A stretch of 64,000 bases of DNA from Pseudomonadota bacterium (GCA_038521345.1 JBCBKU010000013.1:13484-77483); one strand, 5' to 3'; positions 1 through 12,351 are shown, numbered from the stretch's first letter. The notes: generated by a model from the sequence alone, not told the origin. Program-made: numbers and translations.

Positions 1-630
1 ACACCCGCCGCCGCCGTCGGCGTTTTTCTGATCCTGGTCTACGGTCTCGGACTACGCGCCGTGTCGGAAGACGGCCTCACCTGGCCGCGCCTCAGGAACG
101 CGCTGTTGGCCACGGCCAAAACGGCTTCGATGATCTACTTCATTCTCTTTGCCGCAGACATTCTGAAAGGCTTCTTCGCCCGCACCAATCTGCCCGCGGC
201 CCTTAGCGACTGGGCCTCGGCCGCGTCACTCGACCCCTACATGATCCTGATCGCGATGCTCGTGATCCTGATTGTGCTGGGCTGCTTCATGGAAAGCCTT
301 TCGATGATCCTCGTCATCGTGCCGTTCTTCTGGCCGGTTCTGATCCAACTGAACGGCGGCGATTTCGTCAGTCCCGAAGACGCGGCCTTCGGCATGTCGA
401 CAAGTGATCTGAGGATTTGGTTCGGCATCCTCGCGCTGATCGTTGTTGAGTTGGGGCTGATCACACCGCCGGTCGGTCTGAACGTGTTCGTCATCAAATC
501 CTTCTCGCCGATGACCAACATAGCCACAATCTTTCGCGGTGTTGCTCCCTTCTTCGCCATCGAGCTTGTCCGCGTCGGGGTCTTGGTCCTCATGCCCGGT
601 CTCGCGCTCTATCTCACACGAGTCCTCTGA
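1..630 (+). CDS. TRAP transporter large permease (DctM family), 5'-truncated by the window edge
   Basis: Frame 1 is open from nt 1 to the stop at 628-630. Hydrophobic multi-TM sequence carries the DctM-like ITPPVGLNVFV motif. Confidence 0.7.
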   Translation, partial: TPAAAVGVFLILVYGLGLRAVSEDGLTWPRLRNALLATAKTASMIYFILFAADILKGFFARTNLPAALSDWASAASLDPYMILIAMLVILIVLGCFMESLSMILVIVPFFWPVLIQLNGGDFVSPEDAAFGMSTSDLRIWFGILALIVVELGLITPPVGLNVFVIKSFSPMTNIATIFRGVAPFFAIELVRVGVLVLMPGLALYLTRVL

Positions 631-640
631 GGAGCCTGCC

Positions 641-1825
641 ATGACCTCCGTTGTTCAAACACAGGTCTGTATCATCGGCGCCGGGCCAAGCGGCCTGCTC
701 CTTGCCCAATTTCTTGCCAAGGCGGGCATCGACACCGTCGTCATCGACCGGCGCAGTCAGACGTATATCGAGGGGCGCATCAGGGCGGGTGTGCTTGAGC
801 AGGGGAGTGTTGATGCCCTGCAAGAGGCGGGTGTCGCTGAACGACTGCACAACGAGGGTCTGCGCCATGACGGGTTCGATCTTGCCTTTGACGGCGACCG
901 GCATCGCATCGATCTGAAAGCCCTGACCGGCAAATCGGTCACCGTTTACGGCCAGACCGAAGTGACGAAGGACCTGTTTGCCTCTCGCATTGACGACGGA
1001 CAGGTCTTCTTTCTCGACGTCGAAGATGTGGCGCCCACCGATCTCAAAGGTGAGCGATCCCGAGTGGAGTTCCGACACAACGGAGCAGACATCGCCGTCG
1101 AGTGCGACTTCGTCGCCGGTTGCGACGGGTTCCACGGCGTTTCGCGCTCGTGCATTCCGACGGATATCCTGCAAACGTTCGAACGGGTCTATCCCTTCGG
1201 ATGGCTTGGCGTGATGGTCGAGAAACCACCGGTGAGCCACGAACTCATCTACGCAAATCACCAACGCGGCTTCGCTCTTGCCTCAATGCGCTCGGAAAGG
1301 CGCAGCCGATACTATCTTCAGTGCAGCGTGGACGAGGATCTGGCCGAGTGGTCGGACACCCGGTTCTGGGACGAATTGGCGTTGCGTCTTGGCCCCGAGG
1401 CCGCGGCCAACCTCCAGACCGGAGAGGCCTTCGAGAAATCGATCGCGCCATTGCGATCCTTCGTGGCAGAACCGATGCGCTACGGGAACCTGTTCCTTGC
1501 AGGAGATGCGGCGCATATCGTGCCGCCCACGGGCGCAAAGGGCTTGAACCTCGCGATCGCAGACGTCCGCCTTTTGTCGCGCGCGCTCATTGCGCACTTC
1601 ACGCACGGAGACGACCGGCATCTCGATACCTACTCTGAAACGGCGCTGGCACGAATCTGGAAGGTCGAACGATTCTCGTGGCAGCTCTCGATGCTGATGC
1701 ACCAGTTTCCCGAGAACTCGCCCTTTGAGAAACGGATGCAACGGGCCGAGTTTGACTATCTCGCCACGTCAGAGGCTGCGTCGCGATCCATCGCGGAGAA
1801 CTATGTGGGTCTGCCGCTGGCATAG
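641..1825 (+). CDS. pobA: 4-hydroxybenzoate 3-monooxygenase
   Basis: ATG at 641 begins MTSVVQTQVCIIGAGPSGLLLA (FAD GxGxxG fold). PobA-type length of 394 aa with a GDAAHIVPPTGAKGLN motif. The upstream ORF extension is Ser/Pro-rich junk. Confidence 0.9.
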   Translation: MTSVVQTQVCIIGAGPSGLLLAQFLAKAGIDTVVIDRRSQTYIEGRIRAGVLEQGSVDALQEAGVAERLHNEGLRHDGFDLAFDGDRHRIDLKALTGKSVTVYGQTEVTKDLFASRIDDGQVFFLDVEDVAPTDLKGERSRVEFRHNGADIAVECDFVAGCDGFHGVSRSCIPTDILQTFERVYPFGWLGVMVEKPPVSHELIYANHQRGFALASMRSERRSRYYLQCSVDEDLAEWSDTRFWDELALRLGPEAAANLQTGEAFEKSIAPLRSFVAEPMRYGNLFLAGDAAHIVPPTGAKGLNLAIADVRLLSRALIAHFTHGDDRHLDTYSETALARIWKVERFSWQLSMLMHQFPENSPFEKRMQRAEFDYLATSEAASRSIAENYVGLPLA

Positions 1826-1997: not shown

Positions 1998-3608
1998 GTG
2001 ATTAAACATCCCATTGCGATCTTCAGTGAACTCCCGGATCGCACTCCCCGTTATGCGCTGGTGGCAGAGGTCGACCTTGTGGTGGTGCGTTTCGACGACG
2101 AGGTGGCCGTCTACTACGGCCGCTGCCTGCATCGGGGCGCACTCTTGTCGGACGGCCATGTGCGCGGCCGAAACCTGATCTGCAGCCTTCACAACTGGGA
2201 CTACAGGCTCGACACCGGGGTTTCGGAATATGCCAATGAAGAGAAGCTTCCGAAATTCACATCTTGGATTGATGGCGACGACGTCTGCGTCGACGAAGAT
2301 GAAGTCGCGGCATGGGGCCAAGACAACCCCCAGCCTTTCAACCGTGACGCCTATCTGGGGCTCTATGCGGACACCTCGCACGGCACCGCAGAAGAACCCT
2401 ATAACGGCCTGATCCAGCAGTATGCCCGCGACGGCTTGTCGAAGACCGGGCATCACGGTGTTGTGGAATCGATGGGCGTTCCACGCGATGAACTCCCGTC
2501 TTGGGATGATCTGCAAATCCTGACCGCGCAGCTTCAGACCGCCCCCCTTCTTGACGAAGACCCAGTCGGGACGGACGTCGTCATCGGTCCGAATGCACAG
2601 AAGCCGCTGCGGCTCAACATACCCCTCTTTGTGTCCGACATGTCGTTCGGCGCTCTCTCCGAACCCGCGAAAGTGGCGCTGGCGCGCGGCGCCGAACTGG
2701 CCGGAACCGGGATCTGTTCGGGCGAAGGCGGCATGCTGCCCGAGGAGCAGGCGGCGAACAGCCGGTACTTCTACGAATTGGCATCGGCGCGCTTCGGCTT
2801 CTCATGGGAGAAACTCAGCGATGTCCAAGCCTTCCACTTCAAAGGTGGGCAAGGCGCAAAGACTGGGACAGGCGGGCACCTTCCGGGGGTCAAGAACAAG
2901 GGCAAGATCGCCGAGGTGCGCGGCATCGCCGAGGGAGAAGATGCGATTTCGCCGCCCCGGTTCCCGGATTGGACAGAACCTTCCCAGATCAGGGACTTCG
3001 CCGACGAAGTTCGCGACCGAACAGGCGGAATCCCGATTGGTTACAAGTTGTCGGCCCAGCATATCGAAAAGGATATTGACGCCGCGCTCGAGGTGGGCGT
3101 CGACTACATCATCCTGGATGGTCGCGGCGGCGGGACCGGTGCGGCGCCCATTCTCTTTCGCGACAATATCAGCGTTCCCACCATTCCGGCACTGGCGCGG
3201 GCTCGCCGCCATCTTGACGTGCTTGACCGGCGGGACGTGACACTGGTGATCACCGGAGGTCTTCGGAAACCCGCAGATTTCGTCAAGGCCATGGCTCTTG
3301 GTGCTGATGCGATCGCGCTCTCGAATTCAGCCATGCAGGCGATTGGCTGCCTCGCCATGCGCGCCTGCCACACGAACAGTTGTCCGGTTGGGATTGCCAC
3401 GCAGAAACCGCATCTGGTCAACCGCCTTGTGGTCGAGAAGTCGGCCCGCCAGCTTGCAAACTTCTTCGAGGCCTCGGTCGAACTGATGCAGGTGATGGCC
3501 CGTGCCTGTGGCCATGGCCACCTGTCGCATTTCGACGCGAGTGACCTGACCACGTGGAAACGAGAAATGGCCGACCTTTCGGGCGTGGCCTATGGAGGTG
3601 TGTCATGA
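1998..3608 (+). CDS. Rieske [2Fe-2S] domain fused to an FMN-binding glutamate-synthase-family (GltB domain 2-like) domain
   Basis: The N-terminus has CLHRG...CSLHNW (CxH...CxxH). The rest matches the Glu_synthase FMN barrel (SDMSFGALS, GGQGAKTGTGGHLPG, ILDGRGGGTGAAP, ITGGLR). GTG start. Confidence 0.75.
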   Translation: MIKHPIAIFSELPDRTPRYALVAEVDLVVVRFDDEVAVYYGRCLHRGALLSDGHVRGRNLICSLHNWDYRLDTGVSEYANEEKLPKFTSWIDGDDVCVDEDEVAAWGQDNPQPFNRDAYLGLYADTSHGTAEEPYNGLIQQYARDGLSKTGHHGVVESMGVPRDELPSWDDLQILTAQLQTAPLLDEDPVGTDVVIGPNAQKPLRLNIPLFVSDMSFGALSEPAKVALARGAELAGTGICSGEGGMLPEEQAANSRYFYELASARFGFSWEKLSDVQAFHFKGGQGAKTGTGGHLPGVKNKGKIAEVRGIAEGEDAISPPRFPDWTEPSQIRDFADEVRDRTGGIPIGYKLSAQHIEKDIDAALEVGVDYIILDGRGGGTGAAPILFRDNISVPTIPALARARRHLDVLDRRDVTLVITGGLRKPADFVKAMALGADAIALSNSAMQAIGCLAMRACHTNSCPVGIATQKPHLVNRLVVEKSARQLANFFEASVELMQVMARACGHGHLSHFDASDLTTWKREMADLSGVAYGGVS

Positions 3609-5587
3609 CCGATCATCACGACAGCGCAAATCTCGACTGGATTAGCGTCGGGCCGGCGGATTTGCCCGAAGGCCGGGTGAAGACCGTCTCGGCGCGCGAT
3701 CACTACATCTGCCTTTCGCATTTCGACGGCCAATGGGCCGCGATGGACAACCATTGCCCCCATCAAGGTGGCCCTCTGGGCGAAGGCACAATCGAGCGTG
3801 GGATCGATGACAAGTGCTGGATACGATGCCCGTGGCACGGATGGGACTTCGATCCGCTGACCGGAGCACCCCCGGGGGGACACGAAGACACCGGTCAGAA
3901 GACCTACCCCGTCGAGGTCCGAGACGGAGAGATTTTTGTCGGTCTTGAACCGGAACCGCCGCATGAACGGACGGTCACGGATGCGATGGCCGAAACCATG
4001 GTTAATTGGGGCATCGCGCGGGTCTTCGGCATGGTCGGTCACTCTAATCTCGGGCTGGCCGACGCAATCCGCCGACGGACGGTGGACGGTCAGATGTCCT
4101 ATGTGGGGATCCGGCATGAGGGCGCGGCGGCCTTCGCCGCCTCGGCCTATGGCAAGCTTACCGGCATGCCGGCCGCCTGCCTGACCATCGCCGGACCCGG
4201 GGCAACCAATCTTCTGACCGGTCTATGGGATGCCAAAGTTGACCGTGCGCCGGTCCTCGCGCTCACCGGTCAGGTCCAGACGCAGGTGTTCGGCCCGGGT
4301 GCGTTTCAGGACATAGACCTGCATTCAGCCTTCGACGCGGTCAGCCGGTTTTCCCAGACCGTGCTCTCCACGTCGCGACACGCCGAGCTTACCTCGCTCG
4401 CAATCAAGACCGCCTTGGTCGAGCGTGACGTCGCGCATCTGATCTTCCCCGATGATGTGCAGACCCAGCCCAGCGATGCCAAGGCCGCCACGCCGACGGG
4501 CCGCATGGGGGCGCCGATCATCAAACCGTCCGACGGCGACGTGGACGCGGCCGTGGATCTGATCGGATCGGCCAAACGTCCGATGGTGATCATGGGCCAC
4601 GGCGCTTGGGAGGCACGCGACGATATCATTGCACTCGCGGAATCCCTCGGCGCACCGGTCGTCACCACCTTCAAGGGCAAGGGCCTTATCCCCGACAGTC
4701 ACCCGAATGCCGCCGGGGTGCTCGGGCGTTCGGGCACGCCGATCGCGAGCTGGTTCATGAACGAAGCAGACCTGATCATTGCTCTTGGCACCTCGTTTTC
4801 GAACCACACGGGCATCACCCCGTCCAAACCCATCATTCAAGTTGACTTCGAGCGGATGCAGTTGGGCAAGTTCCACCCGGTGACCTTGCCGATCTGGGGC
4901 GAAATCGGTGCCTTCTGCACCGCAGTCGCGCCGCGTATCCGTCGCGGCGCCGGTCCGGATCAGGTCGCCGAACTGGCCGAGCGCTGGGAGATGTGGCGGG
5001 CCGAAAAAGCTGGGCGGTTGGCCGAGGAAGGTTCACGCGGCGTCCATTCCGTTGCGGTTTTCGAAGCGCTTTCGCGCGTCGCGCCTGCGGACGCACTGAT
5101 CGCCGTCGACGTGGGCAACAACACCTATTCCTTCGGACGCTATTTCGAGACCAAGGGCCAACGCGTGATGATGTCGGGATATCTTGGTTCGATCGGTTTC
5201 GCTCTTCCGGCCGCCATGGGGGCATGGGCAGCGACCCAGGATTTTGCCGCGTTTCGGGGGCGCAAGGTGATCTCGGTCTCCGGCGACGGGGGCTTTGGCC
5301 AATACGCGATGGAGATGACGACACTCGTCAAGTACGGCATGGACGTCACGCATGTGCTCTTGCACAATGACGAGCTTGGCAAGATTTCGAAAGAGCAGCG
5401 ATCCGGCGAATGGCCGGTTTGGGAAACGTCGCTCGTGAACCCCTCTTTCGCAGCCTTTGCGCGTCTCTGTGGCGCCCACGGAACCAAAGTCACCGACAGC
5501 GCCGAGGTCGAAACCGCACTTGCGGAAGCTCTGGCGGTCGACGGCCCTGCGCTGGTTGAGATTATGACGGACGCCGAACTGGTCTGA
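3605..5587 (+). CDS. Rieske/NirD-like [2Fe-2S] domain fused to a thiamine-diphosphate enzyme (pyruvate oxidase/acetolactate synthase superfamily)
   Basis: ATG at 3605 overlaps the upstream stop (ATGA). Carries CPHQGG...CPWHGW, then the three ThDP domains (GPGATNLLTGLWDA, GDGGFGQY...LLHNDELG). Confidence 0.75.
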   Translation: MTDHHDSANLDWISVGPADLPEGRVKTVSARDHYICLSHFDGQWAAMDNHCPHQGGPLGEGTIERGIDDKCWIRCPWHGWDFDPLTGAPPGGHEDTGQKTYPVEVRDGEIFVGLEPEPPHERTVTDAMAETMVNWGIARVFGMVGHSNLGLADAIRRRTVDGQMSYVGIRHEGAAAFAASAYGKLTGMPAACLTIAGPGATNLLTGLWDAKVDRAPVLALTGQVQTQVFGPGAFQDIDLHSAFDAVSRFSQTVLSTSRHAELTSLAIKTALVERDVAHLIFPDDVQTQPSDAKAATPTGRMGAPIIKPSDGDVDAAVDLIGSAKRPMVIMGHGAWEARDDIIALAESLGAPVVTTFKGKGLIPDSHPNAAGVLGRSGTPIASWFMNEADLIIALGTSFSNHTGITPSKPIIQVDFERMQLGKFHPVTLPIWGEIGAFCTAVAPRIRRGAGPDQVAELAERWEMWRAEKAGRLAEEGSRGVHSVAVFEALSRVAPADALIAVDVGNNTYSFGRYFETKGQRVMMSGYLGSIGFALPAAMGAWAATQDFAAFRGRKVISVSGDGGFGQYAMEMTTLVKYGMDVTHVLLHNDELGKISKEQRSGEWPVWETSLVNPSFAAFARLCGAHGTKVTDSAEVETALAEALAVDGPALVEIMTDAELV

Positions 5588-5617: not shown

Positions 5618-5950
5618 TCAGGCCTCGAATGCGTCGCACTGGGTGACGTGATGATGAATCCGTCCGTCGAAATACTCGGCGACGATCTCGCCTGTCACTT
5701 CTTTGGACTGGAACCGCGGTGCGCTGTCGAGCGCACCCTCCATTGCCGCCAGGTCTGGATAGCTGATGGCGAGAATCAGCGGGAACTCAGGCGCGCCCTC
5801 GTCACGGTCGTCACTGAACATCACACGCACATCCGAATGTCCCGGAAACTGCGTCCAGAGCGGAATAAGCCGCTCGCGAACCGCAGCGCGGAACGCCTCG
5901 GTCTTGCCCGGCTTCACGGACCCCTCGAACAAGGCAAACCGTGTGATCAT
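5618..5950 (-). CDS. EthD/Dabb-like small alpha-beta barrel protein
   Basis: 110 aa. ATGA overlap with the upstream dehydrogenase. The fold-family call is from composition and length only. Confidence 0.45.
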   Translation of the reverse strand: MITRFALFEGSVKPGKTEAFRAAVRERLIPLWTQFPGHSDVRVMFSDDRDEGAPEFPLILAISYPDLAAMEGALDSAPRFQSKEVTGEIVAEYFDGRIHHHVTQCDAFEA

Positions 5951-6834
5951 GCTGGAAACTCCCCTTTTGCGCCCTTGAAAAATTCCATAACGGCCGCCTG
6001 ATCCTCACCGCCCAACCCGGCCGCGGTCAACATCCGGTGGATTTCGGCGCAAAGCGCTGTCATCGGCATCGATGTCCCCGTCTTGCGGGCCAACTCGGCG
6101 ACCATGTTCAGATCCTTGACCATGTTGTCGATCCGACCCGTCCGCCTGTAATCCCGCGTGGCGAACCGGGGCATGTACTCTTGCAAGAGCGCGCTGTCGG
6201 CGCGACCGCCCCGTAGCGCATCCGGGATCTTTGCGGCGTCGACACCTGCATCGATCGCCAGCTGGGTGGCCTCGGCCACAGCCATGAACCCAAGACCGCA
6301 CAATACCTGATTGATCATCTTCGTCGTCTGCCCCGCTCCTGCCGGGCCCATATGGGTCAACGTCGTGGCGAGATCTCCAAGGATAGGTTTGGCCTTGACC
6401 ACATCGTCTTCCCTCCCTCCGAGCATCAGGGTCAACGTTCCGTCGAGCGCCTTTGGCGCGCCGCCGGACAAGGGGCTGTCGACCCAGCCGAGACCAAGAT
6501 CATAAGCCCGCCGCGCGAAGTCCCGCGTGGCGTCGGGCTCGATCGAAGACATGTCGATCAGGGTCGTCCCCGTCGCGGCACCCGAGGCAATGCCGGTCTC
6601 GGCAAAAATCGCAAGGTCGACGATCCGTGCGGCGTTAAGCGACGTGATTACATGGCTGACATTCTGCGCAGCGTCGGCCGCAGATGCTGCGGCGCGCGCA
6701 CCTTTGGACACGAGCGCCTCGACCTTCTCGCGATCAAGATCGAAGACGATCAGATCGTGGCCCTTCTGCAATAGCCGGGTGCCGATGGCACCGCCCATGG
6801 CACCGGCGCCCACAAGACCAATGGAATAGCTCAT
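5947..6834 (-). CDS. NAD(P)-dependent beta-hydroxyacid dehydrogenase (3-hydroxyisobutyrate/tartronate-semialdehyde reductase family)
   Basis: N-terminal IGLVGAGAMGGAIGTRL Rossmann motif at the family-typical 295 aa. ATGA overlap with gntK. Confidence 0.8.
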   Translation of the reverse strand: MSYSIGLVGAGAMGGAIGTRLLQKGHDLIVFDLDREKVEALVSKGARAAASAADAAQNVSHVITSLNAARIVDLAIFAETGIASGAATGTTLIDMSSIEPDATRDFARRAYDLGLGWVDSPLSGGAPKALDGTLTLMLGGREDDVVKAKPILGDLATTLTHMGPAGAGQTTKMINQVLCGLGFMAVAEATQLAIDAGVDAAKIPDALRGGRADSALLQEYMPRFATRDYRRTGRIDNMVKDLNMVAELARKTGTSMPMTALCAEIHRMLTAAGLGGEDQAAVMEFFKGAKGEFPA

Positions 6835-7331
6835 GCGGTAGTCTCCAGAAGGCGCGCCGCCTCTTTGACGATGTCATCCACGGGTTGGTCGATATCGACG
6901 GCGACAGAACACTCATCTTCGGCCGGAGGTTCGAGTGTGTCGAACTGGCTGTCGAGAAGGCTTGGCGGCATGAAGTGGCCCGGGCGTGTCGCCATACGTT
7001 CCGCGATGACGTTTCGAGAACCGGTCAAGTGGAGGAAAGTGATCGGGCGTGCGGCGGCGGCTCGGATCCGGTCGCGATACACACGTTTCAGCGCGGAGCA
7101 TCCGATCAAAAGCGGCCCCGGCTCGATTGCGATCCGCCCGCCGACCCGGTCGAGCCAGGGCGCACGGTCGTTATCGTCAAGGGGGTGGCCCGCAGACATT
7201 TTCGCGATGTTTTCGGGTGGATGCAGGTCATCCCCATCGACATAGGCGACGCAGAGCACTTTGGAGAGACCTGCTCCGATCGTGGACTTTCCGCTTCCGG
7301 CCACCCCCATGATGACGACGCCCCAGCTCAC
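6831..7331 (-). CDS. gntK: gluconokinase (GntK/IdnK type)
   Basis: P-loop VVIMGVAGSGKST followed by DGDDLHP..N..KM..G.PL.D.DR.PWL. The GTG at 7331 overlaps the idnO stop (GTGA). The longer ORF N-terminus is Arg-rich shadow sequence. Confidence 0.8.
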   Translation of the reverse strand: MSWGVVIMGVAGSGKSTIGAGLSKVLCVAYVDGDDLHPPENIAKMSAGHPLDDNDRAPWLDRVGGRIAIEPGPLLIGCSALKRVYRDRIRAAAARPITFLHLTGSRNVIAERMATRPGHFMPPSLLDSQFDTLEPPAEDECSVAVDIDQPVDDIVKEAARLLETTA

Positions 7332-8095
7332 AGCGATGCCGTGATCCCGCCGTCGACGAACAATGTGTGCCCGTTGACAAAGCTCGACGCGTCGGAAGCA
7401 AGGAAGACTGCCGCCCCGACCAATTCGTCGACGCGGCCCCAACGCCCGGCCGGGGTCCGCGTCTCGAGCCAGGCCGAGAAGGTCGGATCGGCCACCAACG
7501 CGGCGTTTAAAGGCGTGTCGAAGTATCCCGGCGCGATCGCGTTGCATTGCAGGCCGTAACGCGCCCAGTCGGTCGCCATGCCCTTGGTCAGGTTCGCGAC
7601 CGCCCCTTTCGTCATCGTGTAGGGTGCGATCCCAGGTCGGGCGAGCGCGGTCTGCACGCTGGCGATGTTGATGATCTTGCCCGCACCGCGGGCGATCATG
7701 TGGCGTGCAGCGGCCTGGCCGACGTGGAAGACACTGGCGATATTGGTTTGCATCAGGCGTTCGAACGCGTCGGCCGGAAAGTCCTCGAGCGGGGTCCGAT
7801 GCTGCATGCCGGCATTGTTGACGAGGATGTCGAGCGGACCGGTCGCTGCCTCAAACCCGTCGACGGCGGCGCGGGCGGCAGCGTGGTCCGTCACGTCGAA
7901 AGCCAATTCCGCCACCTCGGCCCCTTCGTCGCGCAAGGTGGCAGCGGCCGTTGCCAGCTTGGCCTCGTCGCGCCCGTTCAGCACCAAAGACGCACCGGCC
8001 GCGGCAAGCCCCCGTGCCAGTCCGAACCCGATCCCCTGCGAAGACCCTGTGATCAGCGCACGACGACCTCCAAGATCAAACAGCGACGACACCAT
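7328..8095 (-). CDS. idnO: SDR, gluconate 5-dehydrogenase / 5-keto-D-gluconate 5-reductase-like
   Basis: TGSSQGIG cofactor motif, NNAG, and the YxxxK region (YTMTKGAV). Sits next to gntK and idnD. Confidence 0.7.
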   Translation of the reverse strand: MVSSLFDLGGRRALITGSSQGIGFGLARGLAAAGASLVLNGRDEAKLATAAATLRDEGAEVAELAFDVTDHAAARAAVDGFEAATGPLDILVNNAGMQHRTPLEDFPADAFERLMQTNIASVFHVGQAAARHMIARGAGKIINIASVQTALARPGIAPYTMTKGAVANLTKGMATDWARYGLQCNAIAPGYFDTPLNAALVADPTFSAWLETRTPAGRWGRVDELVGAAVFLASDASSFVNGHTLFVDGGITASL

Positions 8096-8148
8096 CAATC
8101 CATTCCCCCCTGAATTCTGTTGACCCAAGGACGCGTGACGACCAAGAG

Positions 8149-8176
8149 TGTTATCGGTAACATGTTACCGGTATCA
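8149..8176. promoter_or_regulatory. Two abutting 14-bp GntR/IdnR-type (LacI-family) operators in the idnO/idnD divergent promoter
   Basis: TGTTATCGGTAACA (8149-8162) and TGTTACCGGTATCA (8163-8176). The same palindromic motif recurs at 15824, 15847 and 16955. Confidence 0.6.
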
Positions 8177-8316
8177 TAGCCTGTCAAGCGGGTTGTTGAC
8201 CGCCGACAGGGGTCCGCAGGAACCAAACAAGACACGCCGCTCGGGCTGGCCATAGCCGGGGATCTGCGCGACAAAAGACATACCGCGGCCCGTGGGGCGA
8301 GGGAAAGGACGACGCG

Positions 8317-9348
8317 ATGAAAACAGTTGTGGCCCATGCGGCGCGGGACCTCAGGATCGAAGACCGCGAAATGCCGACACCCGGTCCGGGCGAGGTTCTA
8401 ATCCGCATCGAGCGCGGCGGGATCTGCGGGTCCGACCTGCACTATTTTGCGCATGGCGGGTTTGGGACCGTCCGGCTGAAGGAACCCATGATCCTTGGCC
8501 ACGAAGTCTCGGGGCGAGTGCATGCGCTGGGCGACGGGGTCGATGGCTTCGAGATCGGTCAGTTGGTCGCGGTGTCCCCGTCCCGCCCGTGCAATGCTTG
8601 CGCTTTTTGCTACGAAGGTCGCCAGAACCATTGCCTCAACATGCGGTTTTACGGGTCCGCCATGCCGTTTCCCCACATTCAGGGGGCCTTTCGTGAGTAT
8701 CTGGTGGCCGATCCCAGCCAATGCGTGCCTGCGGACGGCCTGTCTGCCGAAGCCGCAGCAATGGCCGAGCCCCTGGCGGTGGTCCTGCACGCGGCGCGGC
8801 GCGCGGGTGACCTGATGGGCAAGCGCGTTCTCGTCACCGGATGCGGCCCCATTGGTCAGCTTGCGGTCCTTGTTGCCCGTGCCGCCGGAGCGGTCGAGGT
8901 TGTGGCCACCGACGTTGCCCCCTTCACCCTGACGCAGGCCGAACGGATTGGCGCAGACCGGACCCATAACGTGGCCGCGGATCCGGATGCCCTGTCCGGC
9001 TATTTCGCGGACAAGGGTCATTTCGACGTTCTTTTTGAATGCTCCGGCGTCGCCGCAGCCCTGGCCGGAGCCGTGCCGGCGCTGCGCCCGGGTGCTCTTG
9101 TCATGCAGCTTGGACTTGGTGGGGATATGACCCTTCCCGTGCAGGCAATGACGGCGAAAGAGCTGGAACTGCGCGGGTCCTTCCGGTTTCACGCCGAGTT
9201 TCCCGCGGCAGTCGACATGATGCAGAGCGGGCGTCTGGACGTCATGCCGCTTATCACGCACCGGTTCCCGGTGGACGACGCCGTGCCGGCCTTCGATATG
9301 GCCGCCGATCGCAGTCAGGCGATCAAAGCGCAGATCGCCTTTTTCTAG
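8317..9348 (+). CDS. idnD: Zn-dependent L-idonate 5-dehydrogenase-like alcohol dehydrogenase
   Basis: GGICGSDLHY, GHEVSG and the structural-Zn Cys cluster (CNACAFC) in 343 aa. An RBS GAGGGAAAGG lies upstream. Confidence 0.75.
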   Translation: MKTVVAHAARDLRIEDREMPTPGPGEVLIRIERGGICGSDLHYFAHGGFGTVRLKEPMILGHEVSGRVHALGDGVDGFEIGQLVAVSPSRPCNACAFCYEGRQNHCLNMRFYGSAMPFPHIQGAFREYLVADPSQCVPADGLSAEAAAMAEPLAVVLHAARRAGDLMGKRVLVTGCGPIGQLAVLVARAAGAVEVVATDVAPFTLTQAERIGADRTHNVAADPDALSGYFADKGHFDVLFECSGVAAALAGAVPALRPGALVMQLGLGGDMTLPVQAMTAKELELRGSFRFHAEFPAAVDMMQSGRLDVMPLITHRFPVDDAVPAFDMAADRSQAIKAQIAFF

Positions 9349-9351
9349 GGC

Positions 9352-9768
9352 CTAGGTTTTGGCGCCGATCGCGGCAAGCGCGGCCTCGCCCACTGCAATG
9401 TCCTGCTCGGCGGTTCCCGAGCCGACGCCGATCCCACCGACGAGGTGTCCATTCATCCGGATCGGCAAACCGCCGCCCAGCCCAGTAACCTCGCCTTGTG
9501 TCGCGGCAGCGATGCCGGGGCGGAACCCTTCGGGAACGGTGTGACTGGGTGCACCGATCGAGGCCGCCGTCCGCGCCTTCGAGCGCGCGCTTTTTCGACT
9601 GAGATACTTGGCGCCCGTCATGCGGATCTCGCCCAGAGTCTCGCCGCTGGCGTCCACAATCACAATGCACTGTGGCTGGCCGGTCTCTTCAGCCTTGGCG
9701 ACGGCGGCCGACAGCATCGCGAGGGTGGCGGCATGAGTCAGAGACTCGGTTGGGCGGGTAAAGCTCAT
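9352..9768 (-). CDS. GlcG/HbpS-like (DUF336) heme-binding protein
   Basis: 138 aa with the conserved GGGLPI..NG..VGGIGVSG-type C-terminal motif. ATGA overlap with the lactonase gene. Confidence 0.7.
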   Translation of the reverse strand: MSFTRPTESLTHAATLAMLSAAVAKAEETGQPQCIVIVDASGETLGEIRMTGAKYLSRKSARSKARTAASIGAPSHTVPEGFRPGIAAATQGEVTGLGGGLPIRMNGHLVGGIGVGSGTAEQDIAVGEAALAAIGAKT

Positions 9769-10688
9769 AGCGGCGACACTCCGTTAACATTCAGGTAGAC
9801 CGAATACAGCGACGTCGTGCCACAAATGAAGAGCCGGTTGAGCTTGGCCCCGCCAAAGCAAACGTTGGCCACGAGTTCAGGGATGTGGACCTTGCCGATC
9901 AGTTGGCCGTGGGCAGTGTAGCAATGCACGCCGTCCGCGGCCGACGTCCAGATGCGCCCGGCGGTATCCACGCGGAAACCGTCAAAAAGCCCTGCGCTGC
10001 ATTCGGCAAACACATCGCCCCCTGAGAGAGTTCCGTCGGCAGCAACGGTGTGGCGACGGATGTGTTTGGGACCGTTTTCGGTATGTGTCGCGCCGGTATC
10101 GGCGATATAAAGAAGTTGTTCGTCGGGCGAGAAGGCCAAACCATTGGGTTTCAGATAGTCGTCCGCAACGATCGAGATACCGCCGTCAGGCCCGACCCGA
10201 TAGACGTAACAGGCGCCGATCTCGCTCTCGGCCCGCGCGCCTTCGTAGTCCATCAGGATCCCGTAAGAAGGATCCGTGAACCAGACGCTGCCGTCCGACT
10301 TGACCACGACGTCGTTCGGGGAATTCAGGCGTTTGCCATCGTATTGGTCGGCAACCACCGTGATTTGCCCGTTGAATTCTGTCCGCGTGACGCGGCGACC
10401 CAAATGCTCGCACGTGATCAGTCGGCCCTGCCGGTCCACCGTCTGCCCGTTCGAGTTGTTCGAAGGCTGGCGGAAGACAGACACGCTGCCGTCCGTATCG
10501 TCCCAGCGCAGAATCCGGTTGTTCGGAATGTCGGACCAAAGCAGATACCGTCCCGCGGCAAACCATGCCGGACCTTCCGACCAGCGTGCCCCGGTCCACA
10601 GGCGTTCGACCCGTGCGTGGCCGACAAAGCAGGTCTCGAACTCTTTCTCAATGACCTCGAAGCCGGTGCCCTCCAGCTCTCCGAACAT
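9765..10688 (-). CDS. SMP-30/gluconolactonase/LRE-family lactonase
   Basis: Beta-propeller motifs (EGPAW, NSPNDVVV, KPNGLAFSPD, DGFRVD). ATG at 10688 has an AGGGGA RBS. Confidence 0.8.
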   Translation of the reverse strand: MFGELEGTGFEVIEKEFETCFVGHARVERLWTGARWSEGPAWFAAGRYLLWSDIPNNRILRWDDTDGSVSVFRQPSNNSNGQTVDRQGRLITCEHLGRRVTRTEFNGQITVVADQYDGKRLNSPNDVVVKSDGSVWFTDPSYGILMDYEGARAESEIGACYVYRVGPDGGISIVADDYLKPNGLAFSPDEQLLYIADTGATHTENGPKHIRRHTVAADGTLSGGDVFAECSAGLFDGFRVDTAGRIWTSAADGVHCYTAHGQLIGKVHIPELVANVCFGGAKLNRLFICGTTSLYSVYLNVNGVSPL

Positions 10689-10702
10689 GGTGCGTCCCCT
10701 GT

Positions 10703-11416
10703 CTATTCCCCCGGATGGCGCGTATCCGTCCGGCGACGAATACCCCATCCTATCGGTTTGCGATGATTGCCAGGGTGCTCAAGACCCGGCCCCCAGATTG
10801 CCTGATAGGTATCAATTGCATAACCACGCGATTGCAGGAAGGTGAAGGCGGCCACAAGTCCGGCCCACCAGCCAAGGATCGTGATCCACATCCAGACCGG
10901 CGCGTTCGCCTGCCACATGCCGACGACAATGGTCGTTACAGCAAGCGCCAGAAGCCCGTATCCGATTAGCTTGTGCACCCACTCGAACATGACGCGCCAA
11001 GGCGTCATGTCATAGTGATCCCCCCGCTCAGAGCCGTCCTTGCCTGTTGCAGTCGGACCCCCTTTTGAGCCGCGAAAAAAACCGAAAAGACCCTGCGCGA
11101 GCGCGAGAACAACGACGGTGTACCCAAGCCGTGCGTGCAGGTTCAGAGTATCTGAATCTCGAAGAACCAACGCGAGCCCCAAGAGCGTGAGGCCCAGCAC
11201 GACACATTGCCCAATCCAGTGGCTACGCCACCAGGTCTGACTGTCGAGTTCCCGGGGCCAGTCCTGACCCGGCAGAACCTTGCAGAACCGCGCGACAAGG
11301 ACCGCAAGCGGGGCGATGATCCCCCATGCGAGCACCATGCTCCGCCCGTGCCAAGCGACATCAAAGCCGACCAGATGCGCCCGGGAAGGGTCGATCGGGG
11401 CGAAGAGCCACTCCAT
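10703..11416 (-). CDS. Eukaryote-type cytochrome b561 domain membrane protein (di-heme, CYBDOM-like core without DOMON)
   Basis: Four His-bearing TM motifs: WHGRSMVLAWGIIAPLAVLVARF, SHWIGQ, LHARLGYTVVVLALAQGLF, WVHKLIGYG. The start ATG shares 1 nt with the permease stop (TGATG). Confidence 0.6.
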   Translation of the reverse strand: MEWLFAPIDPSRAHLVGFDVAWHGRSMVLAWGIIAPLAVLVARFCKVLPGQDWPRELDSQTWWRSHWIGQCVVLGLTLLGLALVLRDSDTLNLHARLGYTVVVLALAQGLFGFFRGSKGGPTATGKDGSERGDHYDMTPWRVMFEWVHKLIGYGLLALAVTTIVVGMWQANAPVWMWITILGWWAGLVAAFTFLQSRGYAIDTYQAIWGPGLEHPGNHRKPIGWGIRRRTDTRHPGE

Positions 11417-12351
11417 CAGCCTTTCACGGCTCCGGCCGTCATCCCGGTGATAATCTGGCGGCTGGCAAGCAGAGTGAAGATGATGGGCGGGATCGCCAAA
11501 AGCATCCCCGTCGCCATAATGACCCCCCACTCGACATTGAACTCGCTCATGTTGTTCACGATCAGAATGGGCACCGTTTTGGTGTTCCGGTCAGACAGGG
11601 CCGACGCCAGAAGATACTCGTTCCACGCGATCCGGAAGGTGAAGATCGCAGCCGCGGCGAGACCCGGTTTGATGAGTGGCAGAACAACGAGAAAGAAGAC
11701 CTGGAAGGGGCCTGCCCCGTCAACCCTAGCCGCTTCTTCAAGGCTCGGCGGGACCTGCACGATGAAGCTTTGCAGAATCCAGATAACGAAGGGCAGGTTC
11801 ATCGCGATATAGATCAGGATGATGCCGGAATGGGTACCTGCAAGGCAGACATCCCCCCTGCCCCCGAACGTGTCGCGGATGAGCCCCCCGATCAGGCCGT
11901 CTCGGTCGAGGCAGAATTCATTGTTCCAAAGCCCGAAGACCGGAACAAGCAGCACGGCCGGGGGGACCATACGGACCATCAAGGTCGTCAACGAAACCGT
12001 ATCGCGCCCCATGAACCGGAACCGAACCAGCGCATATGCACCCATGCACCCGATGATCAGAGTGAGCAGCGTCGAAACGAGCGCGATGATCAGCGAGTTG
12101 ATGAAGGCCCCGCCGAACTTGAGCGAGCAGAAATCCAGATGATCGGGCTCGTAGGGCAGGATATCGCACAAAGCGGTTTCGTAGTTCTGGATGGTCGGCA
12201 GGAAGATCAGACCTGTCGTGCCGCCGATGATGTCCACATCCAGTTTGAAACTGTTGACGAACATCAAAAGCACGGGGCCCACGGCCATAAAGATCAGAAC
12301 CGCGAGTAGTGCGTAGAAGGCGGGGTTCGGTCGATCATAGGACGTCGCCAT
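11416..12351 (-). CDS. ABC sugar transporter permease (MalG/UgpE-like)
   Basis: EAA loop (EEAARVDGAGPFQVFFLVVLPL). ATG at 12351 overlaps the upstream stop by 1 nt. The longer ORF N-terminus is shadow sequence. Confidence 0.85.
   Translation of the reverse strand: MATSYDRPNPAFYALLAVLIFMAVGPVLLMFVNSFKLDVDIIGGTTGLIFLPTIQNYETALCDILPYEPDHLDFCSLKFGGAFINSLIIALVSTLLTLIIGCMGAYALVRFRFMGRDTVSLTTLMVRMVPPAVLLVPVFGLWNNEFCLDRDGLIGGLIRDTFGGRGDVCLAGTHSGIILIYIAMNLPFVIWILQSFIVQVPPSLEEAARVDGAGPFQVFFLVVLPLIKPGLAAAAIFTFRIAWNEYLLASALSDRNTKTVPILIVNNMSEFNVEWGVIMATGMLLAIPPIIFTLLASRQIITGMTAGAVKG

Follow-up and report, generated by a model that had tools for sequence, protein, structure and literature searches.

What do two overlapping genes do when each encodes a Rieske domain ahead of a different redox enzyme? 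The question is raised by positions 1998-5587 of a 64,000-nucleotide stretch of DNA from a Pseudomonadota bacterium (GCA_038521345.1, JBCBKU010000013.1:13484-77483; the whole stretch is called the window below). The first gene, A, encodes a Rieske domain and a glutamate-synthase-type domain predicted to bind flavin mononucleotide (FMN) and a [3Fe-4S] cluster, and the second, B, a Rieske domain and a thiamine diphosphate (ThDP) enzyme core resembling PoxB and PQO (EC 1.2.5.1). A preliminary description of the pair, made from the sequence of the window, had proposed a dedicated electron relay between the two proteins and, from the nearby 4-hydroxybenzoate hydroxylase gene pobA, a role in converting aryl acids to 4-hydroxybenzoate. 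Our analysis suggests that A and B may be two soluble redox enzymes, each with its own low-potential Rieske domain as a one-electron port, and we tentatively favour a Rieske-wired redox module in which A and then B carry out successive oxidations and the electrons leave through the Rieske domains.

The layout that the preliminary description had given holds in the sequence: two consecutive genes joined by an ATGA tetranucleotide, in which the stop codon of A overlaps the start codon of B, with a GGAGG Shine-Dalgarno sequence preceding the start of B (Table 1). Both fusion architectures that it had named, Rieske with FMN and Rieske with ThDP, are real by Pfam scan, with E-values far beyond chance; the Rieske model PF00355 scores 46.2 bits in A and 54.3 bits in B against a gathering cut-off of 20.3. 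The motifs it quoted, CLHRG...CSLHNW in A and CPHQGG...CPWHGW in B, were found, and inspection of the Cys/His spacing revealed a Rieske ligand set in each N-terminus (C43, H45, C62 and H65 in A; C51, H53, C75 and H78 in B) that is invariant in alignments of 35-36 homologues. The Rieske domains are conserved to the same degree as the catalytic cores, the mean column identity of the A and B family alignments being 0.83-0.88 in the Rieske parts as against 0.83-0.90 elsewhere in the proteins. On reading the sequences, the cysteines of the bc1-type disulfide are absent from both Rieske domains. A Rieske domain lacking these additional cysteines follows the low-potential pattern, whereas the bc1 type is of high potential. 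A and B share the low-potential ligand pattern with the Rieske oxygenase systems (T4moC, BphF, NdmA), and the best PDB matches to the Rieske domain of A come from this group, in the Rieske parts of NdmA, T4moC and ring-hydroxylating oxygenases. A mononuclear-iron oxygenase domain was not found in either protein by Pfam scan, and a role as a Rieske oxygenase is rejected because this catalytic iron domain is absent from both A and B.

The catalytic part of A aligns with the FMN/synthase domains of the glutamate synthase (GltS) alpha subunits from Azospirillum (1EA0), Synechocystis (1LLW) and B. subtilis (7MFM), with which it shares PF01645, a Cys triad, four synthase-site residues and the ISPP motif. 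The triad aligns to GCIMARVCHTNNCPVG of 1LLW and to the equivalent stretches of 1EA0 and 7MFM, and is invariant among the homologues of A. Residues E243, Q285, K288 and R308 of A, which are likewise invariant, correspond to E903, Q969, K972 and R992 of Synechocystis ferredoxin-dependent GltS, which, together with Q978, we take from the literature to act at the synthase site; four of the five are thus kept, the position of Q978 being occupied in A by an invariant histidine, H294. A further differs from GltS in lacking the beta subunit and the glutamine amidotransferase, central and GXGXG domains (none of these three was found in A by Pfam scan), and in carrying a Rieske domain at the point of electron entry. 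With these GltB domains missing, and with a score of 125.8 bits for the GltB model NF008730 that lies far under its equivalog cut-off of 1047, A is not a GltB. From its domain and motif content, A is predicted to be the synthase module of GltS standing by itself, its Rieske domain occupying the place at which electrons normally enter from ferredoxin or the beta subunit. The length of A fits that of its homologues, which have 535-537 residues and are 83-100% identical to it, the closest (P0121, from a Pseudomonadota metagenome-assembled genome (MAG)) at 100%. N-methylglutamate synthase was considered as a further role and dropped, since partner genes of the MgsA/MgsB type are absent among the recurrent neighbours described below.

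In B, the three domains TPP_enzyme_N, TPP_enzyme_M and TPP_enzyme_C are matched by Pfam with E-values of 4e-32, 2e-36 and 3e-31, and the best PDB sequence matches are E. coli PoxB (3EYA/3EY9, E=2e-67) and C. glutamicum PQO (9EV3-9EV6, E=1e-61). B has the same three-domain ThDP fold as these enzymes at ~26-33% identity and keeps the catalytic Glu, the GDG...N diphosphate/Mg motif, the FQ pair of the active site and the G-x-G motif of the middle domain; E172 (the catalytic Glu), G331-x-G333 and G560-D-G562...N588 are invariant in its homologues. The invariant G331-x-G333 and the closeness of B to members dependent on flavin adenine dinucleotide (FAD) are hints, from sequence alone, of FAD in B. 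B is thus predicted to be a ThDP-dependent 2-oxo-acid dehydrogenase core of the PoxB/PQO kind, probably with FAD. An AlphaFold2 model of B was of moderate quality (predicted local distance difference test score, pLDDT, of 73), and its best fold matches were PoxB, AHAS and PQO. B lies under every NCBIfam equivalog cut-off, the best match being PRK08611 (pyruvate oxidase; 379.5 bits against 742), with PRK09124 at 317 against 792. The PoxB alignment covers residues 3-528 of the 572-residue chain and B ends four residues past position 528, so that the C-terminal amphipathic membrane-binding peptide of PoxB (~533-572) is absent from B in the PDB alignment. In PoxB, this lipid-binding peptide gives access to membrane quinone. 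B differs from PoxB and PQO, then, in having no lipid-binding peptide and in having an N-terminal Rieske domain.

Relatives of both enzymes point to a use for the N-terminal domains. A search of 1.84 billion cluster representatives found the Rieske-ThDP architecture in only about four clusters at 50% identity. The next relatives of B (40-47% identity) have an N-terminal rubredoxin before the ThDP core, and one relative (56% identity) has Fer4_19, two CDGSH domains and a Rieske domain ahead of it. The former are PoxB-like proteins (P0247, P0251, P0253 and P0260, from loci L081-L083, L170 and L171) and the latter is P0242 (L084 8001-10622). All join the same core to an N-terminal one-electron carrier of another type than the lone Rieske domain of B, and the rubredoxin- and CDGSH-carrying ThDP proteins are solitary in their loci and, like A and B, appear uncharacterised. 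A glutamate synthase domain behind two CDGSH domains is likewise listed in a published survey (PMC5859297), and these proteins are uncharacterised as well. Because the relatives of B swap carriers and a CDGSH-Glu_synthase fusion has been reported, the N-terminal domains probably act as interchangeable electron carriers, and both enzyme families appear to have gained differing one-electron carriers at their N-termini repeatedly. The electron-transfer role that the preliminary description had given to the Rieske modules fits this swapping.

Is the pairing of A with B conserved? Species-representative genomes were scanned with B, yielding at least 592 relatives, and the best 80 loci were examined; these encode proteins 72-87% identical to B and come from Rhodobacterales/Paracoccaceae, Stappiaceae, Rhizobiaceae, Hoeflea, Nitratireductor and others. 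Of these loci, 56 are well flanked (8 kb or more on either side). In 49 of them (88%) A is found no more than 10 kb from B, mostly directly upstream, and ATGA junctions are frequent among the adjacent pairs, the others being separated by short gaps. A second set of 80 metagenome loci was seeded with A, and of its 17 well-flanked members (at least 3 kb on both sides) seven (~40%) contain B and ten do not; B is present in five of the seven loci whose A is at least 77% identical to that of the window and in two of the ten others. Distant relatives of B (40-56% identity) are solitary. The linkage is real and asymmetric, in that members of this B clade have A with them, while A often occurs without B. 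That B needs A, and not the reverse, would be expected if A makes the substrate of B or is its redox partner. The pairwise distance matrices of A and B show a moderate correlation (Mantel r=0.45, reached in 0 of 999 permutations), and from Rhodobacterales to Stappiaceae, Rhizobiaceae and other groups the two proteins keep an identity of 72-90%. The claim of a coupled pair therefore stands as far as strong linkage is concerned, and falls in so far as it implied a closed and dedicated couple, given the A loci that lack B and the solitary distant relatives of B.

Several individual loci depart from the usual arrangement. In one genome (L001), A is not beside B and lies elsewhere on the same chromosome, adjoining a LysR-type regulator. 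On a 3.6-Mb MAG chromosome labelled Hyphomicrobiales (L002 11986-12969, minus strand), what can be detected of an A homologue (89% identical) is confined to its C-terminal 328 residues; it lies convergent with B and immediately downstream of it, and represents a truncated or Rieske-less A or a rearrangement. Homologues in MAGs labelled as non-alphaproteobacterial (A at 84% identity in a Rubricoccaceae MAG, P0196; A and B at 75-76% in a Betaproteobacteria MAG, L054) are due either to horizontal transfer of the pair or to contamination in binning. Lastly, if L093 and L038 (Actibacterium sp. 188UL27-1 contig7) are one contig, as their shared length of 217,427 bases suggests, it has two paralogues of A, one 82% identical to that of the window and within an A-c9-c10-B arrangement (these partners are described next), the other solitary, ~165 kb off and 86% identical.

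Neighbouring open reading frames (ORFs) were clustered de novo and then scanned with profiles for partners beyond the pair. The cluster c8, a CPA1-type cation/proton antiporter, is present in 28 of the 56 well-flanked B loci and is also the commonest neighbour of A in the A-seeded set (17 loci). The clusters c9 and c10 occur together in 25 of the 56, either after B or between A and B, in the two gene orders A-B-c9-c10 and A-c21-c9-c10-c56-B, the small membrane ORFs c21 and c56 accompanying them. The c9 protein (~355 residues) combines a Ferric_reduct transmembrane domain (FRD) bearing paired histidines in two helices with a C-terminal Rieske domain, to which the Rieske domain of B is 31% identical. 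It matches the MsrQ and MamZ models weakly and has the transmembrane domain with paired histidines in common with MsrQ/YedZ and the NOX/FRE cytochromes b, but differs from these in its C-terminal Rieske domain, found in place of an FNR-like/FMN module, and in its partner, which is c10 and not MsrP. The c10 protein (253 residues) is a single-pass membrane protein whose one helix is N-terminal and whose C-terminal part is rich in Cys; Pfam, NCBIfam and PDB yield no match to it, and each of its homologues bears the label "hypothetical protein". The FRD-Rieske architecture has been on record since 2013 as model M4, without a function (PMC3591440). In two loci (L112, L113) c9-c10 stands directly beside A with no adjacent B, and in Kiloniella, Geminicoccus and Ensifer soli a c9-c10 unit of five genes is found on its own. 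The module consists of one or two small ORFs, the FRD-Rieske protein, the 253-residue protein, coupled translationally to the former by a 4-base overlap, and a further small ORF, all of them labelled hypothetical. None of c8, c9, c10, c14, c21, c22 or c56 is encoded in the 64-kb window by homology search, and the membrane cytochrome b partner was invisible to the preliminary description because it is absent there.

DUF5996 and DUF1194 proteins also recur near A and B, and in Hoeflea, Nitratireductor and Rhizobiaceae the loci have a divergent extracytoplasmic function (ECF) sigma factor gene together with one for an anti-sigma factor of ~100 residues. This anti-sigma factor bears a zinc-finger-like Cys/His motif, and the two genes adjoin a c8-A-B-DUF5996 cluster; the sigma factor lies upstream of c8-A-B in L040, L043, L051, L065, L066 and L074, and is also found in L105, L107, L109, L123, L127 and L137. 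Its presence hints at stress-responsive control in those lineages.

How might these parts work together? In the module that we favour, A would be a synthase unit, with FMN and [3Fe-4S], interconverting a glutamate-type 2-amino acid and the corresponding 2-imino or 2-oxo acid, wired so that electrons pass between the Rieske domain and the [3Fe-4S] cluster and between the latter and FMN. B would be a decarboxylating 2-oxo-acid dehydrogenase of the PoxB/PQO kind, using ThDP and probably FAD, which, having lost its membrane- and quinone-targeting C-terminus, would hand electrons to its own N-terminal Rieske domain. A would oxidatively deaminate a glutamate-like amino acid, B would oxidatively decarboxylate the 2-oxo acid so formed, and the four electrons would exit via the Rieske domains to a shared acceptor, with physical contact among the carriers presumed. 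In many genomes this acceptor may be the FRD-Rieske cytochrome b, whose Rieske domain would be cytoplasmic and which would move electrons outward across the membrane. Electron flow through two-heme FRD proteins of the NOX, FRE and MsrQ families is outward, a direction favoured by the membrane potential; A would consequently donate electrons in loci where it is accompanied by c9-c10 alone. The oxidative direction is preferred because FRD electrons go outward and because A is found with c9-c10 alone. Since A occurs alone, with B, with the cation/proton antiporter or with the c9-c10 membrane module, we infer that A is the hub, with B and the FRD-Rieske protein as its partners.

Several points weigh against this oxidative module. 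GltS normally runs reductively. If B acts on pyruvate and A on glutamate, both central metabolites, no substrate-product link between them is needed. The AlphaFold2 model of A is poor (pLDDT of 51, from an alignment of 35 sequences at 83-90% identity), the linkage figures of the A-seeded set come from small samples and short metagenome contigs, and c8, c9 and c10 are missing from the window and from about half of the related loci.

The main rival explanation is a relay from B to A, which was the core of the idea in the preliminary description. B would oxidise pyruvate or another 2-oxo acid and pass electrons from Rieske to Rieske to A, which would reductively aminate 2-oxoglutarate or an analogue with free ammonia, giving a glutamate synthase driven by a 2-oxo acid and requiring neither NAD(P)H nor ATP. 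Electron transfer between Rieske clusters on separate proteins is established chemistry, and the ferredoxin/NirD-type Rieske domain of B, set beside the oxygenase-alpha-type matches of the Rieske domain of A, echoes the transfer from ferredoxin to oxygenase. A retains synthase-site residues and the [3Fe-4S] triad of GltS, whose physiological direction is reductive, but it does so without an amidotransferase or GXGXG domain and with a histidine for Q978. The ATGA coupling suggests 1:1 synthesis of A and B, and B of this clade is nearly always beside A; yet A often occurs without B, and a few loci have only the FRD-Rieske module, so that another donor would be needed, while distant relatives of B work without A. 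The frequent adjacency of A to a K+(NH4+)/H+-type antiporter fits ammonium handling or the accumulation of potassium glutamate. Against the relay, inward electron flow through the FRD would oppose the membrane potential, and loci with A and c9-c10 but no B are left unexplained. We regard the relay as possible and somewhat less likely than the oxidative module.

It is also conceivable that A and B are independent dehydrogenases that share a type of Rieske port and a common generic partner, their adjacency reflecting shared regulation or co-transfer. The A-seeded loci without B (ten of 17), the genome in which A lies elsewhere by a LysR-type regulator, the solitary distant relatives of B and the only moderate Mantel correlation all agree with this, and the 72-90% identity of the pair across orders, with occurrences in MAGs labelled Betaproteobacteria and Rubricoccaceae, suggests a mobile cassette. 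However, the 88% adjacency seen from the side of B, the tight or overlapping junctions and a linkage that survives rearrangement exceed what is usual for co-regulation, and we consider independence unlikely.

The oxidative module can be carried one step further. A, B and the FRD-Rieske cytochrome b, with c10 and the small membrane subunits, could form an unrecognised electron-export chain with three Rieske domains, in which the cytoplasmic oxidation of an amino acid and of its 2-oxo acid would be wired, by transfer from one Rieske domain to another and without NAD(P)H or quinone, into a transmembrane cytochrome resembling NOX and MsrQ and from there to an extracytoplasmic acceptor such as O2 (yielding superoxide), Fe(III) or an oxidised periplasmic substrate. 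This is a speculative extension to which we give little credence in its full form; if true, it would be a candidate for the unexplained production of extracellular reductant or superoxide by marine bacteria of the Roseobacter group.

The aryl-acid pathway of the preliminary description took its cue from pobA and the TRAP (tripartite ATP-independent periplasmic) permease gene just before it, on the same strand as A. In this proposal A would oxidise an aryl 2-amino, 2-hydroxy or 2-oxo acid (4-hydroxyphenylglycine, 4-hydroxymandelate and 4-hydroxyphenylglyoxylate being the candidates) and B would oxidatively decarboxylate the product to 4-hydroxybenzoate for PobA, an order of steps that is chemically plausible. 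The identification of pobA is sound (606.6 bits against the TIGR02360 cut-off of 538.7), but the gene starts 10 bases past the DctM fragment and ends 172 bases ahead of A, so that it looks to be part of its own unit with DctM. Among the 80 B-seeded loci, a PobA-like gene lies near the pair in one (at 55% identity and 3 kb downstream) and a TRAP DctM gene in two. The pobA/TRAP context is hence not conserved, and the position of the pair beside pobA in the window looks accidental. Since A and B remain 72-90% identical in differing neighbourhoods, their substrate is very probably the same everywhere. With this context unconserved, with glutamate/2-oxoglutarate-type synthase residues in A and with pyruvate rather than benzoylformate as the substrate of the nearest characterised relatives of B, the conversion of an aryl-glycine or mandelate into 4-hydroxybenzoate is unsupported and highly improbable.

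Table 1. Features of the A/B locus, of its surroundings in the window and of the c9-c10 module in related loci (coordinates refer to the window unless a locus is named).
Feature	Coordinates	Strand	Remarks
Gene A, Rieske + glutamate-synthase-type FMN/[3Fe-4S] domain	1998..3608	+	GTG start, 536 aa; ORF call and Pfam
Rieske domain of A	2022..2252	+	residues 9-85; PF00355 E=4e-12
Glu_synthase (GltS synthase-site) domain of A	2589..3512	+	residues 198-505; PF01645 E=1e-87
Cys triad of A, C451-x5-C457-x4-C462 (GCLAMRACHTNSCPVG)	3348..3383	+	matches GltS [3Fe-4S] ligands
A/B coupling junction	3594..3608	+	GGAGG 3594-3598, six bases 5' of ATG at 3605; ATGA overlap 3605-3608
Gene B, Rieske + PoxB/PQO-like ThDP core	3605..5587	+	ATG at 3605, 660 aa; Pfam
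Rieske domain of B, ferredoxin/NirD type	3653..3877	+	residues 17-91; PF00355 E=1e-14, Rieske_2, Rieske_4
ThDP core of B	3971..5563	+	TPP_enzyme_N residues 123-239, TPP_enzyme_M 313-440, TPP_enzyme_C 502-653
pobA (4-hydroxybenzoate 3-monooxygenase)	641..1825	+	TIGR02360; local context, outside the conserved unit
DctM fragment (TRAP)	61-630	+	Pfam
HIBADH/tartronate-semialdehyde-reductase-like gene	5947-6834	-	sugar-acid cluster
Small kinase	6831-7400	-	sugar-acid cluster
SDR (short-chain dehydrogenase/reductase)	7328-8128	-	sugar-acid cluster
Zn-dependent alcohol dehydrogenase	8317-9348	+	sugar-acid cluster
HbpS/GlcG-like gene	9352-9768	-	sugar-acid cluster
SMP-30 gluconolactonase	9765-10748	-	sugar-acid cluster
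c9-c10 membrane module	L063 6654-8479; L086 7518-10066; L087 7592-9956; L089 7904-9989

Beyond the pair, no signal exceeded shuffled controls in scans for promoters and terminators or in RNA folding of the gap between pobA and A and of the sequence that follows B. Convergent with B is a 110-residue ORF (5618-5950, minus strand) with a weak ABM-domain match (E=0.001, below the cut-off), which shares 4 bases with the end of the HIBADH-like gene and has a homologue near A/B in none of the 80 loci. The genes from 5947 to 10748 resemble, by profile matches, a sugar-acid cluster of the gluconate/idonate type. About 5 kb from the pair, at 10703-11530 (minus strand), is the gene for a 275-residue membrane protein that matches the eukaryotic cytochrome b561 family (PF03188, E=9e-07) and is thereby a di-haem carrier of electrons across the membrane; this gene is no conserved neighbour of A/B in the other loci.

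Searches of the literature, PDB and NCBIfam found no solved structure, curated family model or paper on either fusion or on the pair, in agreement with the preliminary description, which knew of no characterised member of either fusion, and the public names of A and B are generic ("glutamate synthase-related" and "thiamine pyrophosphate-binding"). Each catalytic core is familiar, as is the carrier domain; it is their combination, and the pair, that are uncharacterised. A and B constitute a widespread, highly conserved and slowly evolving pair of marine alphaproteobacteria, and their function would explain a common piece of metabolism. B would exemplify an enzyme of the PoxB type that has come to deliver its electrons to an iron-sulfur carrier in place of quinone. 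According to which way the electrons run, the pair would represent either an NAD(P)H-independent assimilation of ammonium or a new route of transmembrane electron export.

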